DNA from: a virus
Taxonomy: Duplodnaviria; Heunggongvirae; Uroviricota; Caudoviricetes
Length of the DNA stretch: 43,852 nucleotides
IMG/VR virus record: IMGVR_UViG_2563366881_000002
Span: 1 to 43,852 of that record
Direction: 5' to 3' (one strand)
Under the pieces are notes generated by a model. The model had not been told where the DNA came from and ran no database searches. It worked only from the letters and a program-made list of their open reading frames with translations. This document shows, piece after piece, positions 8,588 to 19,754 of the stretch. Within the stretch, counting starts at the first letter, position 1. Each line of letters begins with the position of its first letter. Made by a program: the position numbers and the translations under genes.

Positions 8588-9529
8588 ATGAGCACTAAAT
8601 TAACCGGCTATGTATGGGATGGTTGCGCTGCATCAGGCATGAAATTATCCAGCGTGGCAATTATGGCCCGCCTGGCTGATTTCAGTAATGACGAAGGTGT
8701 GTGCTGGCCATCAATTGAAACCATTGCCCGCCAGATTGGCGCGGGGATGAGTACCGTCAGAACGGCTATCGCACGGCTGGAAGCAGAAGGCTGGTTAACG
8801 CGTAGGGCGCGTCGCCAGGGTAACCGCAATGCGTCGAATGTTTATCAGCTTAACGTTGCGAAGCTTCAGGCAGCGGCATTTTCTCAACTGTCAGATTCTG
8901 ACCCGTCAAAATCTGACGCATCAAAATCTGACCCGTCAAAATTTGATGCGTCGAAATCTGGCAAAAAAGCGGGTTTTCACCCGTCAGAATCTGGTGGGGA
9001 TCCGTCAGTAAAATCAAAACATGATCCGTCAGATAAAAAAACTTCTCGTCCGGACGCTTCGCAACCGGACACGCAGACGGCTGAACAGGATTTTTTAACT
9101 CGCCATCCTGATGCGGTTGTATTCAGCCCTAAAAAGCGCCAGTGGGGGACGCAGGATGATTTGACCTGCGCACAGTGGCTCTGGAAAAAAATCATCGCCC
9201 TGTACGAGCATGCCGCCGAATGTGACGGCGAGGTGGTTCGTCCCAAAGAACCGAACTGGACAGCATGGGCAAACGAAATTCGCCTGATGTGTGTGCAGGA
9301 TGGTCGTACTCATAAACAAATCTGCGAGATGTACAGCCGCGTCAGTCGCGATCCGTTCTGGTGCCGTAACGTGCTCAGCCCGTCGAAGCTGCGGGAAAAA
9401 TGGGATGAGCTTTCCCTGCGCTTATCGCCGTCCGTCAGCACGTACACCGAAAAACGCGAAGACCCGTACTTCAAAGCCAGTTACGACAACGTGGACTACA
9501 GCCAGATCCCGGCAGGATTCAGGGGGTGA
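8588..9529 (+). CDS. replication initiation protein (lambda O-like; N-terminal HTH, internal iteron origin)
   Basis: N-terminal winged-helix (..SIETIARQIGAGMSTVRTAIARLEAEGWL..); tandem 15-bp repeats inside the gene encode an SDxSK linker, as in lambda O/ori. Confidence 0.7.
   Translation: MSTKLTGYVWDGCAASGMKLSSVAIMARLADFSNDEGVCWPSIETIARQIGAGMSTVRTAIARLEAEGWLTRRARRQGNRNASNVYQLNVAKLQAAAFSQLSDSDPSKSDASKSDPSKFDASKSGKKAGFHPSESGGDPSVKSKHDPSDKKTSRPDASQPDTQTAEQDFLTRHPDAVVFSPKKRQWGTQDDLTCAQWLWKKIIALYEHAAECDGEVVRPKEPNWTAWANEIRLMCVQDGRTHKQICEMYSRVSRDPFWCRNVLSPSKLREKWDELSLRLSPSVSTYTEKREDPYFKASYDNVDYSQIPAGFRG
8893..9038. repeat. iterons (candidate origin of replication) inside initiator gene
   Basis: At least five tandem ~15-bp units ACCCGTCAAAATCTG / ACGCATCAAAATCTG / ... 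plus degenerate copies and flanking A-tracts. Confidence 0.6.
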
Positions 9530-14567: not shown

Positions 14568-15629
14568 ATGAAAAACACTGTAAAAATAAACAGTATTGAT
14601 TTAATCAACGCTGATTGCCTGCATTTTATTCAGTCCCTGCCTGATGATTCCATTGACCTGATTGTTACCGATCCGCCTTACTTCAAGGTGAAACCCAACG
14701 GTTGGGACAATCAGTGGAAAGGGGACGAAGATTACCTTAAGTGGCTGGACCACTGTCTGGCCCAGTTCTGGCGGGTGTTGAAACCTGCCGGAAGCCTTTA
14801 CCTGTTCTGTGGGCATCGCCTGGCATCTGATATTGAGATCATGATGCGTGAACGTTTCAACGTGCTTAACCATATCATCTGGGCGAAGCCGTCCGGACGT
14901 TGGAATGGGTGTAATAAAGAAAGTCTGCGCGCATATTTTCCTGCCACAGAGCGCGTTCTGTTTGCTGAACATTACCGGGGGCCATATCGCGGCAAAAGTG
15001 ACGGCTATGTGGCAAAAGAAAGGGAACTCAAACAGCACATAATGGCACCGCTGATATCGTATTTCAGGGATGCTCGTGCCGAACTGGGTATAACGGCAAA
15101 ACAAATTGCCGAAGCCACAGGTAAGAAAAATATGGTTTCCCACTGGTTTGGTGCCAGTCAGTGGCAGTTGCCGAATGAGGCTGACTACCGGAAGTTACAG
15201 GCACTGTTTTCCCGTATAGCGGCAGAGAAGTTTCAGGAACAACAACTGGAACAACCACACCACCAGTTGGTGGCATCTTATGATTCACTGAATCGCAAAT
15301 ATTCTGAATTGCTGGATGAGTTTAAATCTCTCCGGCGCTATTTCTCCGTATCAGTCTCCGTGCCTTATACCGATGTCTGGATGCATAAACCCGTTCAGTT
15401 CTACCCGGGTAAACATCCGTGTGAGAAACCGGCGGATATGCTCAGGCAAATAATCAATGCCAGTAGTCGACCCGGCGATCTGGTTGCTGATTTCTTTATG
15501 GGATCCGGTTCCACAATAAAAGCAGCAATGGCGCTGGGGCGTCGGGCGTTAGGTGTTGAGCTTGAGACAGAGCGGTTTAATCAGACCATCCAGGAAATCA
15601 GTATGTTATCAGCAAATACAATTTTGTGA
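14568..15629 (+). CDS. DNA methyltransferase, beta-class amino-MTase (N6-adenine or N4-cytosine), orphan
   Basis: Motif IV DPPY (..LIVTDPPYF..) near N-terminus and motif I FxGxG (..FFMGSGST..) near C-terminus; no adjacent restriction endonuclease recognised. Confidence 0.85.
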   Translation: MKNTVKINSIDLINADCLHFIQSLPDDSIDLIVTDPPYFKVKPNGWDNQWKGDEDYLKWLDHCLAQFWRVLKPAGSLYLFCGHRLASDIEIMMRERFNVLNHIIWAKPSGRWNGCNKESLRAYFPATERVLFAEHYRGPYRGKSDGYVAKERELKQHIMAPLISYFRDARAELGITAKQIAEATGKKNMVSHWFGASQWQLPNEADYRKLQALFSRIAAEKFQEQQLEQPHHQLVASYDSLNRKYSELLDEFKSLRRYFSVSVSVPYTDVWMHKPVQFYPGKHPCEKPADMLRQIINASSRPGDLVADFFMGSGSTIKAAMALGRRALGVELETERFNQTIQEISMLSANTIL

Positions 15630-16226: not shown

Positions 16227-16658
16227 GATAAAAAAGCCCGCGCTGGGAGGCACGGGCGGCAAGGAATAAAACGTGAAGAAATTTTCACAGGCGCATAATA
16301 ATCCGATGTTGCCAGATTTTGCAACTGCATCATCTGGTTATTATGTGAGCTGGAAAATCAGATTCTGTATGGACTGAAGCCATGCTGTTATTTAGGGCCA
16401 AAGAGCTGGCTTTTTCCCGCCTTCTCTCCAGTAACGATTAATGAGAAAAGAATGAAATGCTTTTCCTGGGGAGGAGGGCAGTAGAAAAAAGAACCCGCCA
16501 GCAAAAATATGGGGGATGAACAGCTTTTGCTACTCAGGTTGCTGGCGGGTATGGTTCTTCATGAAATAAGAATGTTACGCGGTATTTTTAATGAAAATGA
16601 TAATTATTGTCAATTGGTTGTGCGTATTTTTTCATACATGACTGGTAAAGGTGATTCA

Positions 16659-16692
16659 GGCCATCAGAGTTTTGCTGATGGCCTTTTTTCTT
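16659..16692 (+). terminator. rho-independent terminator immediately upstream of holin
   Basis: GGCCATCAG-AGTTTTG-CTGATGGCC followed by TTTTTTC. Confidence 0.55.
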
Positions 16693-16722
16693 TCCGGTAG
16701 CACAGGTCTGTTGGGGCGGGAT

Positions 16723-16938
16723 ATGTATCAGATGGAAAAAATATCAACAGGCATTGCCTACGGCACCTCCGCAGGCAGTGCTGGCTACTGGTTTTTACAA
16801 TGGCTTGATCAGGTTAGTCCGTCTCAGTGGGCTGCGATTGGTGTACTGGGAAGTCTGGTTCTGGGCTTTCTGACTTATCTGACGAATCTGTACTTCAAAA
16901 TCAGAGAAGACAGAAGAAAGGCTGCGAGAGGAGAGTAA
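16723..16938 (+). CDS. holin, phage-21 S21 / EssQ-type pinholin with dual start (71/68 aa)
   Basis: [71 protein letters not shown] closely matches recalled S21; two in-frame ATGs (16723, 16732) give the holin/antiholin dual-start motif. Confidence 0.85.
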
Positions 16939-16942
16939 TATA

Positions 16943-17287
16943 ATGGTCCAAAACTATGAAATGATTGTGAAAGGGATCCGCAATTTTGAGAATAAAGTTA
17001 CGGTAACTTTAGCATTACAGGACAAAGAACGCTTTGACGGTGAAATTTTTGACCTGGACATCTCGCTGGACCGTGTTGAAGGTGCCGCGCTGGAGTTTTA
17101 TGAGGCAGCAGCCAGAAGGAGCATCAGACAGGTCTTCCTGGATGTTGCTGCCGGGTTATGTGGAGGGGATGAGCAGTCGCCGGAAAAGCGCCCCATAATT
17201 TTAGAGGCGCAGAGTGTGTGGATAACCTACAAAGGAAAACTGCCGGGAAGAATTACTGGTTCACTGAAGACTCCGCCGAAATGGTAA
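16943..17287 (+). CDS. hypothetical protein between holin and endolysin (YdfR/DUF1327-like by position)
   Basis: 114-aa ORF starting 5 nt after holin stop; Qin has ydfR in the same slot (recalled, sequence not verified). Confidence 0.45.
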   Translation: MVQNYEMIVKGIRNFENKVTVTLALQDKERFDGEIFDLDISLDRVEGAALEFYEAAARRSIRQVFLDVAAGLCGGDEQSPEKRPIILEAQSVWITYKGKLPGRITGSLKTPPKW

Positions 17288-17525
17288 TTTCACCAGCATA
17301 TTTTTCTTCCAGTAATACCGCCAGCCACTTGAAAGAATTTTGTTGTTGCTGGGACCATTTGGGGTTGAGTGATTCAAGCTGGAGCGATGCCAGTGTTGGT
17401 TGCATTTGTTCCTTGGGAATTGAGAATGCCAGATATGAAAATGCGACAGTAAGGGCATTTACATCATCCCGAAGCCTGGAAATGCAGTCGAGCAACTCCT
17501 GTAGAGAAATGGTGCTATTGTCCAT
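17253..17525 (-). CDS. hypothetical small protein (90 aa) on opposite strand inside lysis cassette
   Basis: ATG at 17525 preceded by strong SD GAGAGGA (6-nt spacing); protein-like composition; 3' end overlaps the upstream plus-strand ORF by ~35 nt. Confidence 0.35.
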   Translation of the reverse strand: MDNSTISLQELLDCISRLRDDVNALTVAFSYLAFSIPKEQMQPTLASLQLESLNPKWSQQQQNSFKWLAVLLEEKYAGEITISAESSVNQ

Positions 17526-17630
17526 AAACAATCCTCTCTATTGTATTTAACTATTCCTTGCCTGATTCAACAGGCCGGGACAGATAAACATATCCAGGGT
17601 TCAGAAACCGATAAATCCTGATAAATATCC

Positions 17631-18164
17631 ATGAACGCAAAAATCAGATACAGCCTGTCGGCTACTGTACTAGTGCTGATTGGTGCAGGCGCGTCTGCTC
17701 CTCAAATACTTGACCAGTTTCTGGACGAAAAAGAAGGTAACCACACAACGGCATACCGTGATGGTTCCGGCATCTGGACCATCTGTCGGGGTGCCACGAT
17801 GGTGGATGGAAAACCCGTTTTTCCCGGTATGAAACTGTCGAAGGAAAAATGCGACCAGGTTAACGCCATCGAACGTGATAAGGCGCTGGCATGGGTGGAA
17901 CGTAATATTAAAGTACCACTGACCGAACCACAAAAAGCGGGTATCGCGTCATTTTGCCCCTATAACATTGGCCCCGGTAAGTGTTTCCCGTCGACGTTTT
18001 ATAAGCGGCTTAATGCCGGTGATCGTAAAGGTGCCTGTGAGTCGATTCGCTGGTGGATTAAGGACGGTGGGCGTGATTGCCGCACACGTTCAAATAACTG
18101 CTACGGACAGGTTATTCGTCGTGACCAGGAAAGCGCATTAGCCTGTTGGGGGATAGATCAGTGA
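17631..18164 (+). CDS. SAR endolysin (T4-lysozyme-like, RrrQ/R21-type)
   Basis: N-terminal Gly/Ala-rich weakly hydrophobic SAR segment (..[16 protein letters not shown]..); catalytic E-x8-D-x5-T (..[16 protein letters not shown]..); 177 aa. Confidence 0.85.
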
Positions 18165-18622
18165 GAAGAGTAGCCGCGATTATCTCCGCTCTGGTTATCT
18201 GCATCATCGTCTGCCTGTCTTGGGCTGTTAATCATTACCGTGATAACGCCATTACCTACAAAGCCCTGCGCGACAAAAATGCCAGAGAACTGAAGCTGGC
18301 GAACGCGGCAATTACTGACATGCAGATGCGTCAGCGTGATGTTGCTGCGCTCGATGCAAAATACACGAAGGAGTTAGCTGATGCGAAAGCTGAAAATGAT
18401 GCTCTGCGTGATGATGTTGCCGCTGGTCGTCGTCGGTTGCACATCAAAGCAGTCTGTCAGTCAGTGCGTGAAGCCACCACCGCCTCCGGCGTGGATAATG
18501 CAGCCTCCCCCCGACTGGCAGACACCGCTGAACGGGATTATTTCACCCTCAGAGAGAGGCTGATCACTATGCAAAAACAACTGGAAGGAACCCAGAAGTA
18601 TATTAATGAGCAGTGCAGATAG
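18161..18622 (+). CDS. Rz: Rz i-spanin
   Basis: 153 aa, N-terminal TM segment then coiled-coil; overlaps endolysin stop; start GTG 18161 with GGGGGA upstream; resembles lambda Rz. Confidence 0.75.
18381..18563 (+). CDS. Rz1: Rz1 o-spanin lipoprotein (embedded in Rz, +1 frame)
   Basis: 60 aa; lipobox ..VVVGC.., proline-rich (..[19 protein letters not shown]..); fully embedded in Rz. Confidence 0.8.
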
Positions 18623-18653
18623 AGTTGCTCATATCGATGGGCAACTCATGCAA

Positions 18654-18947
18654 TTATTTTGAGCAATACACCCGCGCTTCCAGCGGAGTATAAATGCCAA
18701 AAGTGATGAAACCGAGCAATCCATTTACGAATGTTTGCTGGGTTTCTGTTTTAACCACATTTTCTGCACCACCACAAATTTTTGCTGCATCGACAGTTTT
18801 CTTCTGCCCAATTCCCGAAACGAAGAAATGATGGGTGATGGTTTCCTTTGGTGTTACTGCTGTCGGTTTGTTTCCAACAGTAAACGTCTGTTGAGCACAT
18901 CCTGTAATAAGCATTGCCAGAGCGGCAGAAAACAACATTTTTTTCAT
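18654..18947 (-). CDS. bor: Bor lipoprotein (serum-resistance family)
   Basis: MKKMLFSAALAMLITGCAQQTFTV...TPLEARVYCSK near-identical to recalled lambda Bor; 97 aa; lipobox LITGC. Confidence 0.85.
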   Translation of the reverse strand: MKKMLFSAALAMLITGCAQQTFTVGNKPTAVTPKETITHHFFVSGIGQKKTVDAAKICGGAENVVKTETQQTFVNGLLGFITFGIYTPLEARVYCSK

Positions 18948-19427
18948 CTTATTATCCTGCATTGTTAAAAACGGCAGAATCCTATGTGACAACAATTAAA
19001 CGATAGTTAAATGGATTGATGAAAATTAAAACTACACAGGTGAGCTCAGACGATTGGAGGGAGTTGGGGACACTCAGAATCCTGTAGAATGAAATAAACC
19101 GGTCTATCCGTCCATTACCCTTTTAGCTGCGCTGTATCGTCGCCGTATTCCCGCATTAACCATGACCGTAGCCCGACGGGGAATTCCTTCTGCGTGAGTG
19201 TGCGGGAATAATTAAAAACGATGCACACCGGGTTTTTACCGCGTTAATGATTCGCGGATTTATCCCGGTGCGATGGTGGAAGAAACCGGAAGCTGTATTA
19301 CAGAAAGTGCTACTACTGTATCCCGATGCGATGTATGTAATGTGAGTCAGATAATGGCACAGGATGTGGTGATGTGGCAGTCTGGAACACAGGATATATT
19401 GTCAGAATAAGACCCGTAGGAATAAAA

Positions 19428-19754
19428 ATGAAAAGACGCCTTTTACTACTTTTTCTGTTATCTGTCCTAGCAGTGGGATGCTCGCAGCAAAAAGCTGATG
19501 AGCCCCGGCAATTAGTGACGGTGTATCCACGATATCCGGAATATGCTGCAGCAAATTATATCAAGGGGCTGGTTGAGGTTAAGTTCGATATTGGTGCTGA
19601 TGGGACTGTGACACGGATCGTTTTTCTCCGCTCAGAGCCTCATAATTTGTTTCGTGATGAAGTGGTGAAGGCCATGGCGAAATGGCGATTTGAAAAGAAT
19701 CGTCCCTGTCAGGGAGTGAAGAGACAATTTATCTTTACGCCGTCACGTCCCTGA
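19428..19754 (+). CDS. lipoprotein with TonB C-terminal-domain-like fold
   Basis: MKRRLLLLFLLSVLAVGC lipobox; ..YPRYPEYAAANYIKGLVEVKFDIGADGTV..AMAKWRFEK.. resembles the TonB C-terminal domain; SD AGGA upstream. Confidence 0.55.
   Translation: MKRRLLLLFLLSVLAVGCSQQKADEPRQLVTVYPRYPEYAAANYIKGLVEVKFDIGADGTVTRIVFLRSEPHNLFRDEVVKAMAKWRFEKNRPCQGVKRQFIFTPSRP

Follow-up and report, generated by a model that had tools for sequence, protein, structure and literature searches.

The stretch of DNA analysed here, hereafter the window, is positions 1 to 43,852 of IMG/VR virus record IMGVR_UViG_2563366881_000002 (43,852 nucleotides) and is a complete lambdoid prophage of Escherichia coli. Near the start of its late operon two genes converge between the holin and endolysin genes (Table 1): on the plus strand a ydfR homologue and, on the minus strand, an open reading frame (ORF) of 90 codons, which we call X. 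A previous reading of the sequence alone had found the pair, with a Shine-Dalgarno (SD) sequence GAGAGGA-N6-ATG before X and an overlap put at about 35 nucleotides (nt). It considered the arrangement unusual, and offered a lysis-timing regulator or a toxin-antitoxin-like pair as possible explanations. The description proved accurate, the overlap being exactly 35 nt; the functional proposals were not sustained. It is probable, in our view, that X is a 'moron', an accessory gene inserted in reverse orientation into the late operon, where it separates ydfR from the endolysin gene in a lysis cassette of the phage 21 type, and that its overlap with ydfR is incidental.

Table 1. Positions of genes and other features in the lysis region of the window
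Feature	Position	Strand	Basis or remark
Terminator-like hairpin	16658..16684	+	10-bp stem, then a T run; just upstream of the holin gene
Class II (phage 21 S-type) holin, 71 residues	16723..16938	+	PF04971, 2.6e-35; PGAP 'class II holin family protein' in identical genomes
ydfR-family gene, 114 residues (DUF1327)	16943..17287	+	ATG start; PF07041, 1.9e-42; phrog_406 over its full length
35-nt convergent 3' overlap of ydfR and X	17253..17287	both	Read directly from the sequence
Gene X, 90 residues, phrog_2411	17253..17525	-	ATG start; phrog_2411, 3.1e-59
Segment of about 285 bp, absent from near-identical phages	17283..17568	.	X codons 1-81 and upstream signals; alignment with vB_EcoS-611R1
Shine-Dalgarno sequence GAGAGGA	17532..17538	-	6 nt before the ATG of X
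Conserved elements upstream of X (TACAAT; hairpin with -35-like loop)	17540..17575	-	Kept across alleles
Lysozyme (endolysin)	17631..18164	+	PF00959, 2e-24; phrog_7; hydrophobic Gly/Ala-rich N-terminus
Rz spanin	18161..18622	+	PF03245, 7.8e-54; PGAP name rzpD
Rz1, embedded in Rz	18381-18563	+	Lipobox-like LVVVGC
iss/bor lipoprotein gene, antisense	18654..18947	-	PGAP 'increased serum survival lipoprotein Iss' in an identical genome

The product of the plus-strand gene matches the PF07041 profile over residues 1-112, with a score of 143.9 bits against a cut-off of 25. The gene order, holin-ydfR-(X)-lysozyme here and essQ-ydfR-rrrQ in the Qin prophage of E. coli K-12, puts it in the same slot, so that the sequence-only reading was right to place it there. 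Members of the family vary in length (103, 114, 116, 183, 211 and 268 residues) and only the N-terminal domain is common to them all. In the K-12 protein, residues 1-72 have been reported to bind the N-terminal catalytic half of RNase E, and YdfR preparations carry RNA, which the protein may itself bind (PMC13232886, 2026). The window protein shares with K-12 YdfR only residues 1-70, which fall inside the reported fragment. The two differ in the C-terminal 44 residues, from about residue 70, which in the window protein end in ITGSLKTPPKW. They differ also in their surroundings, since in K-12 ydfR and rrrQ adjoin, overlapping by 4 nt, and no antisense gene is present.

The minus-strand ORF has been called by others before. 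A stretch of 1.1 kb is 100% identical in at least 10 RefSeq E. coli chromosomes, in which PGAP calls both ORFs, naming them 'YdfR family protein' and 'hypothetical protein' (WP_000370551.1, which is X). X is thus already annotated as hypothetical and already constitutes a PHROG family, but without function, domain name or publication.

X is a genuine protein-coding gene under purifying selection. Its translation spans the phrog_2411 profile completely (residues 1-90 on profile positions 1-90 of 90). We collected 254 related loci from IMG/VR and public phages; 248 of them have an unbroken 90-codon frame, a length also kept among relatives at 70-98% identity. The sequence from the SD through the ATG, GAGGATT-N-TTTATG, is invariant in all 28 distinct upstream alleles; an in-frame TTG at 17531, which would give a product of 92 residues, is too near the SD to serve as the start. 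The 38 distinct full-length alleles differ at 85 sites, distributed 21/18/46 over the first, second and third codon positions. Their ratio of nonsynonymous to synonymous substitution rates (dN/dS), calculated by the Nei-Gojobori method, is 0.30, or 0.26 for codons 1-79, compared with 1.1-1.3 in four of the five other frames over X. Deeper comparisons give the same picture: between X and its distant paralogues in an iha island, on an IncF plasmid and elsewhere (see below), dN/dS over codons 1-77 is 0.17-0.35 with dS near 1. The minus-strand ORF is therefore conserved as coding, with the synonymous-biased pattern whose absence would, by the sequence-only reading, have counted against it.

Those data bear on one alternative, namely that the minus-strand ORF is non-functional, a frame open by chance or a shadow of plus-strand coding. 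A plus-strand ORF of 110 codons at 17218-17550 does span X and, because it has third codon positions in common with X, its own dN/dS is also low, at 0.245. On dN/dS alone, X and this shadow frame could not be separated, and some database entries for X are truncated or frameshifted. It was frame integrity that settled the choice: in about 100 of 240 loci with intact X, the plus-strand frame is stopped after 13, 27 or 44 codons. The invariant start and SD and the constant length of X speak against the alternative in the same way, as do remote homologues which, at only 26-62% identity, retain a conserved core, and a structural model that is helical and confident. We regard a non-gene as effectively refuted by frame integrity, remote homologues and deep-paralogue dN/dS, and its probability as very slight. 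The 17218-17550 ORF is nevertheless a clean case of a shadow ORF able to mislead gene callers. The frameshifted entries include several variants of 94 residues, in clusters P0045-P0064, which are shifted after residues ~40-62 into an overlapping frame (…NNKILSSGWR…). Either pseudogenisation or homopolymer sequencing errors in a CAACAACAAAA run would account for them.

The best reading of the product is a small, acidic, soluble cytoplasmic protein with three predicted helices. It has an isoelectric point (pI) of 4.4 and a maximum 19-residue hydropathy of 0.88, with no transmembrane segment. Its N-terminus, MDNSTISLQELLD, is polar and acidic and lacks a hydrophobic leader; neither a signal peptide nor a lipobox was found, so that envelope export of the bor or lom type is not indicated. 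An AlphaFold2 model, built from a diverse alignment of 50 sequences, contains helices at residues 8-35, 38-52 and 59-77 and has a mean predicted local distance difference test (pLDDT) score of 81. Residues 80-90 are predicted to be disordered (pLDDT 42). The homologues found in profile searches have in common the core E-L-L..I..L...V..L.VAFSYLAFS....TL.SL.FES.N, followed by non-conserved tails. Searches of Pfam, NCBIfam and PADLOC found no match to X, seven remote homologues likewise produced nothing above noise, and comparison of the fold with PDB structures revealed nothing specific. A literature search by accessions, phrog_2411, DUF1327 and ydfR/holin returned nothing on X.

The boundary between conserved core and variable tail coincides roughly with the start of the overlap. 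The 35 nt encode, on one strand, the YdfR tail ITGSLKTPPKW and, on the other, the disordered X tail ISAESSVNQ. In the ydfR frame dN/dS is 0.19 over the last 11 codons, against 0.45 for the gene overall, while in the X frame over the same region it is 1.09; selection in the overlap acts on ydfR, not on X. In remote homologues the X core is kept to about residue 77 and the tails beyond differ in every one. Since the tail of X is predicted to be disordered, unconserved and unselected, the functional part of the protein ends before ydfR. The lengths themselves are fixed, with 35 nt of overlap and 106 nt from X to the lysozyme start in every related IMG/VR locus with both flanks. We take the overlap to be most probably a by-product of the join between an X-bearing segment and ydfR, not dual-coding sequence: past about residue 77 the X frame would simply continue, antisense to the final ydfR codons, as far as the first stop.

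The limits of that segment are visible by comparison with sister phages. In phage vB_EcoS-611R1 the holin gene is followed by a ydfR of 116 codons, a 63-nt spacer and the lysozyme gene, with no X, and many other phages are alike. The flanks of these X-less phages are more than 90% identical to those of the window. Homology to 611R1 is lost after about codon 113 of ydfR (~17283) and returns some 60 nt before the lysozyme ATG (~17568). The X segment is an indel between sister phages, as the idea of an insertion between holin and endolysin had implied. Presence in one phage, here as a segment of about 285 bp, and absence at the same site in close relatives is the pattern expected of a moron.

X is not alone in this position. 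In PhiR5_1 the slot holds an ORF of 86 residues (phrog_2572; L256:1609-1869, minus strand) which overlaps a YdfR gene of 211 codons by 53 nt, and in Stx2 phage 86 one of 104 residues (phrog_1853, gp06; L257:1843-2157, minus strand) after a 268-codon YdfR gene. Both share slot, orientation and approximate size with X, and the PhiR5_1 ORF is also acidic. They differ from it in having long YdfR partners and no detectable homology with X, neither by BLASTP, which gave no match, nor by hhalign, in which the probability was <1%. A motif seen by eye that appeared to link X to other antisense ORFs of the slot found no support in either program, and the 'DUF1823' label in the PhiR5_1 record lies below the Pfam threshold (E = 0.023). 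Elsewhere in such cassettes, antisense iraM-like genes precede the holin gene in CFT073 and phiSTEC1575-Stx2k, and the window itself has a second antisense accessory gene, iss/bor, behind Rz and 1.1 kb downstream of X. An antisense gene at the ydfR-lysozyme junction is common rather than exceptional. Given these examples and the presence of X in 22% of complete E. coli genomes (see below), the arrangement does not merit the description of unusual. In phiSTEC1575-Stx2k (L255:2639-3676) holin, ydfR and X are followed not by lysozyme but by a second lysis set, comprising two holin-like genes and an M15 peptidase, so that two holin systems stand in tandem.

The reuse of one slot by unrelated antisense ORFs would be expected if orientation outweighed protein, X then mattering chiefly as RNA. 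Its transcription would run antisense into ydfR and the holin gene, and interference or duplex formation could damp leaky expression of holin and endolysin in the lysogen, or uncouple the two, so tuning lysis. Any transcript of X is bound to be antisense to no fewer than 35 nt at the 3' end of ydfR, as well as to the late mRNA from there to R. Furthermore, a search for a minus-strand terminator before the holin gene found none, the only candidate, a weak one at 16761-16747, being inside the holin gene. We nevertheless consider such a role improbable. Purifying selection on X is clearly at the protein level, the family persists where lysis genes are absent, and most phages with the same holin/ydfR/lysozyme set do without X. 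Nor is plus-strand RNA across the insert structured in excess of expectation (z = 0.08).

The frequency of X was assessed in 5426 complete E. coli genomes. X was found at 1355 places in 1221 of them (22%), including CFT073, with X at 1345087-1345359, and ST131 strains, and ydfR-like DNA at 8605 places in 4349. To find more distant relatives, a first profile was run against 1.84 billion representative proteins, and a second profile search was then made. These yielded a small unnamed family at 26-62% identity to X, of which the remote homologues P0068, P0069, P0075 and P0097 also match phrog_2411. A scan of IMG/VR for further relatives found none of P0068 and only two loci of P0069.

The genomic contexts of the family are diverse. 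In phages, homologues are found between the tail genes M and L, antisense to both; upstream of a terminase cluster, again antisense; and, at 62% identity, upstream of the holin gene and antisense in a Citrobacter freundii prophage. X faces against the late genes in every phage context. Elsewhere, an autotransporter gene and an AraC-type regulator are the neighbours of homologues on an IncF plasmid and a contig. A chromosomal form of 92 residues occurs across many species of Serratia; in L269, a metagenome contig of this cluster and the only locus looked at, its gene is flanked by dinI and bssS. Others are found in the chromosomes of Sodalis, Acerihabitans, Chania, Gibbsiella and Chimaeribacter and, in further genomes, next to DUF892/HxlR genes. 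Finally, 60 E. coli genomes have a copy next to iha and insertion sequence remnants (L283:2446-2718 in E. coli GF60, and 59 others), with 75% nucleotide identity to the X of the window. All 60 of these copies are at least 99% identical to each other. Alignment shows the iha-island copy to be a decayed ydfR-X-lysozyme fragment beside the iha adhesin/siderophore receptor gene, in which only X is still open, with 90 codons, and we therefore dropped it as an independent context.

The X family is neither lysis-specific nor ydfR-dependent. Its tail, terminase, plasmid, island and chromosomal contexts are what would be expected of an accessory gene with an action on the cell, rather than of a lysis-timing factor or an obligate partner of ydfR, and the suggestion of a lysis-timing regulator, for which X would also lack a membrane segment, is not supported. 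The toxin-antitoxin-like pair fares no better. The census figures for ydfR and X are very unequal, X is also found without ydfR, neither protein is hydrophobic (maximum 19-residue hydropathy of YdfR, 0.69) and neither matches a toxin or defence entry in Pfam, NCBIfam or PADLOC. The likeness to type I toxin-antitoxin loci of the txpA/ratA type consists in convergent genes with overlapping 3' ends in a prophage. In type I systems, however, the toxin is a short hydrophobic peptide and its antitoxin a non-coding RNA, whereas ydfR and X both encode soluble proteins under purifying selection that show no obligate co-occurrence.

The same contexts are relevant to whether X might instead be expressed in lytic growth or early infection and serve the phage, for instance by inhibiting a host defence or enzyme. 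X is small, acidic and helical with no enzyme-like fold, like many phage-encoded inhibitors, and is present in the inducible or isolated phages Chlobot, vB_EcoS-783R2 and phiSTEC1575-Stx2k. On the other hand, X opposes strong late transcription, which would collide with its expression, and a dead prophage remnant still keeps the ORF intact. The core-chromosomal orthologues of Serratia and Sodalis point to a cellular rather than an anti-host role, and neither PADLOC nor solved structures produced a match. A lytic function thus appears decidedly unlikely.

The preferred interpretation, that X is a moron, draws on comparison with known accessory genes of lambdoid prophages. Like bor/iss and lom, X is an extra gene in some phages, absent in close relatives and antisense between late genes. 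The bor and lom products are exported envelope proteins with signal sequences, and their genes have documented promoters of their own; X differs in that its product is acidic, apparently cytoplasmic and without a signal peptide. Another parallel is provided by the genes of IraM-like anti-adaptors, whose products are likewise small and soluble and which stand beside the holin gene, antisense to the late genes, in prophages of this family (CFT073, phiSTEC1575-Stx2k). Chromosomal X homologues are found among stress-associated genes (dinI, bssS, DUF892), and this is only a weak hint of a small regulatory or 'connector' protein. Comparison of X with IraM and other known connector proteins found no similarity in sequence or fold, the likeness being in architecture only. 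Morons are expressed in lysogens, a subject that has been reviewed with transcriptomics (PMC7067206). Judged from its orientation and by analogy with bor, lom and the iraM-like genes, X may be expressed in the lysogen too. It would then be made from a weak or regulated promoter of its own, independently of late transcription, and its product would have a host or phage partner to which it binds in the cytoplasm, with no role in lysis timing.

The region upstream of X contains elements that could serve such expression. A -10-like hexamer, TACAAT, lies at 17545-17540, 14 nt from the ATG of X, and its ACAAT is conserved across alleles; in the iha-island copy the aligned position reads TATAAT. At 17575-17560 is a hairpin, GCCTG-TTGAAT-CAGGC, whose loop forms a -35-like hexamer 19 nt upstream of TACAAT and whose CCTGTTG is conserved. 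A second upstream allele of X has a longer stem and the loop TTGCCT. The 5' region of X has a folding z of -2.6. On these sequences the hexamers make a putative promoter of X.

Hairpins are also seen upstream of phage-borne remote homologues. The first (L259:3955-3985, L264:3950-3985, L267:775-805) has stems that differ among the three loci, AGAGG/GCGGAG/ACCGAAG with CCTCT/CTCTGC/CTTCGGT, and a shared loop, G(G/A)ATGGCTGATTA(A), i.e. GGATGGCTGATTAA. The second, about 50-75 nt before the ATG in L259, L264 and L276, has the stems CAGCG/CGACTGTG/CGCCAGTG and CGCTG/CACAGTCG/CACTGGCG around the shared loop GT(G/A)GGA. Both hairpins look like covarying regulatory RNA or DNA elements, though the sequences are few.

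A number of observations weigh against X being a moron of this kind. A scan for consensus promoters and terminators called neither a sigma-70 promoter nor a terminator for X, a further difference from bor and lom, and the pair of -10- and -35-like hexamers is atypical in its 19-nt spacer and very short leader. The composition of the segment does not set it apart, the G+C content being 0.41-0.48 across X and 0.37-0.57 in the flanks, with no step. Either the presence or the absence of X could be ancestral. Furthermore, two of the four non-E. coli phage contexts of X also adjoin lysis genes.

The remaining observations of this sort concern the genes upon which X converges. In five of five independent phage contexts X overlaps a small, convergent, non-core ORF, by 35, 14, 20, 7 and 17 nt, while chromosomal copies have no convergent overlapping partner. 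Similar C-termini, of the form [IL][TF]G[SD][LI]xxPxx, are found in four of these partners: RITGSLKTPPKW in the YdfR of the window, KITGSLRAPIKL in a Citrobacter ORF of 63 residues, RLTGDILIPLES in a 62-residue ORF of L264 and QIFGDLKKPPSY in a 71-residue ORF of L259. The Citrobacter partner matches both the C-terminal extension of the long PhiR5_1 YdfR (BLASTP, 4e-8) and the L264 partner (4e-6), and DNA across the junction of X and partner is homologous between E. coli and Citrobacter. Overlap with a partner and shared tails are not what purely random insertion predicts.

These findings suggest a different explanation, in which X and a YdfR-type partner form a conserved convergent two-gene module, overlapping at the 3' ends, that moves between late-operon sites, X antagonising or regulating its partner, as a protein or as antisense RNA, in the manner of an immunity protein or antitoxin. 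It would accord with purifying selection on the YdfR tail within the overlap, and the binding of RNase E by K-12 YdfR (PMC13232886) makes a regulatory activity of the partner plausible. Yet only ~16% of ydfR copies are accompanied by X, and copies of X without a partner survive in Serratia and Sodalis as well as on the IncF plasmid and in the iha island. The tail motif is short and comparison of the two other partners with YdfR revealed no significant similarity; neither YdfR nor X matches a toxin-antitoxin or defence model or has a hydrophobic character. Moreover, in packed phage genomes an antisense insert automatically converges with its upstream neighbour. We consider such a module unlikely, and a functional link between X and YdfR-type modules in general also unlikely. 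A more elaborate version can be framed, to which we would give still little credence. Here X and a YdfR-type protein with an ITGSLxxPxx tail would be a conserved mobile convergent module, with the late-expressed partner targeting RNase E or RNA. In the lysogen X would be made and would counteract this partner, as protein or antisense duplex, and so set the processing of lysis mRNA, and the unrelated antisense genes of phrog_2572 and phrog_1853 would fill the role elsewhere.

If X is indeed a moron, it leaves the list of candidate lysis regulators and joins the prophage accessory genes, one carried by about a fifth of sequenced E. coli and with a related family that is a core chromosomal gene in Serratia and its relatives. 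For those annotating or deleting lysis cassettes, X should be treated as a real gene, under selection, with a soluble product of three predicted helices and a functional part that stops before the ydfR overlap. Openings to something new are confined to two points, the repeated occupation of the ydfR-lysozyme junction by antisense genes that are unrelated to one another, and the link between X and YdfR-like tails; the report that YdfR binds RNase E (PMC13232886) raises the interest of both.

The remainder of the cassette is of familiar type. The hairpin before the holin gene is, from its position, probably the tR' terminator of the lambdoid late operon. A sub-threshold Rfam match to SgrS at 16593-16689 on the plus strand (24.8 bits against a gathering score of 37) covers this hairpin, and most likely reflects the tR' terminator of the late promoter transcript rather than a relative of SgrS. 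The Rfam scan, of 16300-18700, gave no match in the X region. The holin begins MYQMEK (16723-16734, plus strand), with methionines at positions 1 and 4 and no basic residue in between. The arrangement is dual-start-like, as in phage 21 S, but the lack of a basic residue between the methionines would remove the charge difference that normally distinguishes antiholin from holin. From its N-terminal sequence and its pairing with a P21-type holin, the lysozyme is probably of the signal-arrest-release (SAR) type. Other cargo of the prophage includes a gene for a DNA methyltransferase of 353 residues at 14568-15629 on the plus strand, upstream of the late promoter region, and one for a TonB-family protein at 19374-19754, also on the plus strand, downstream of iss.

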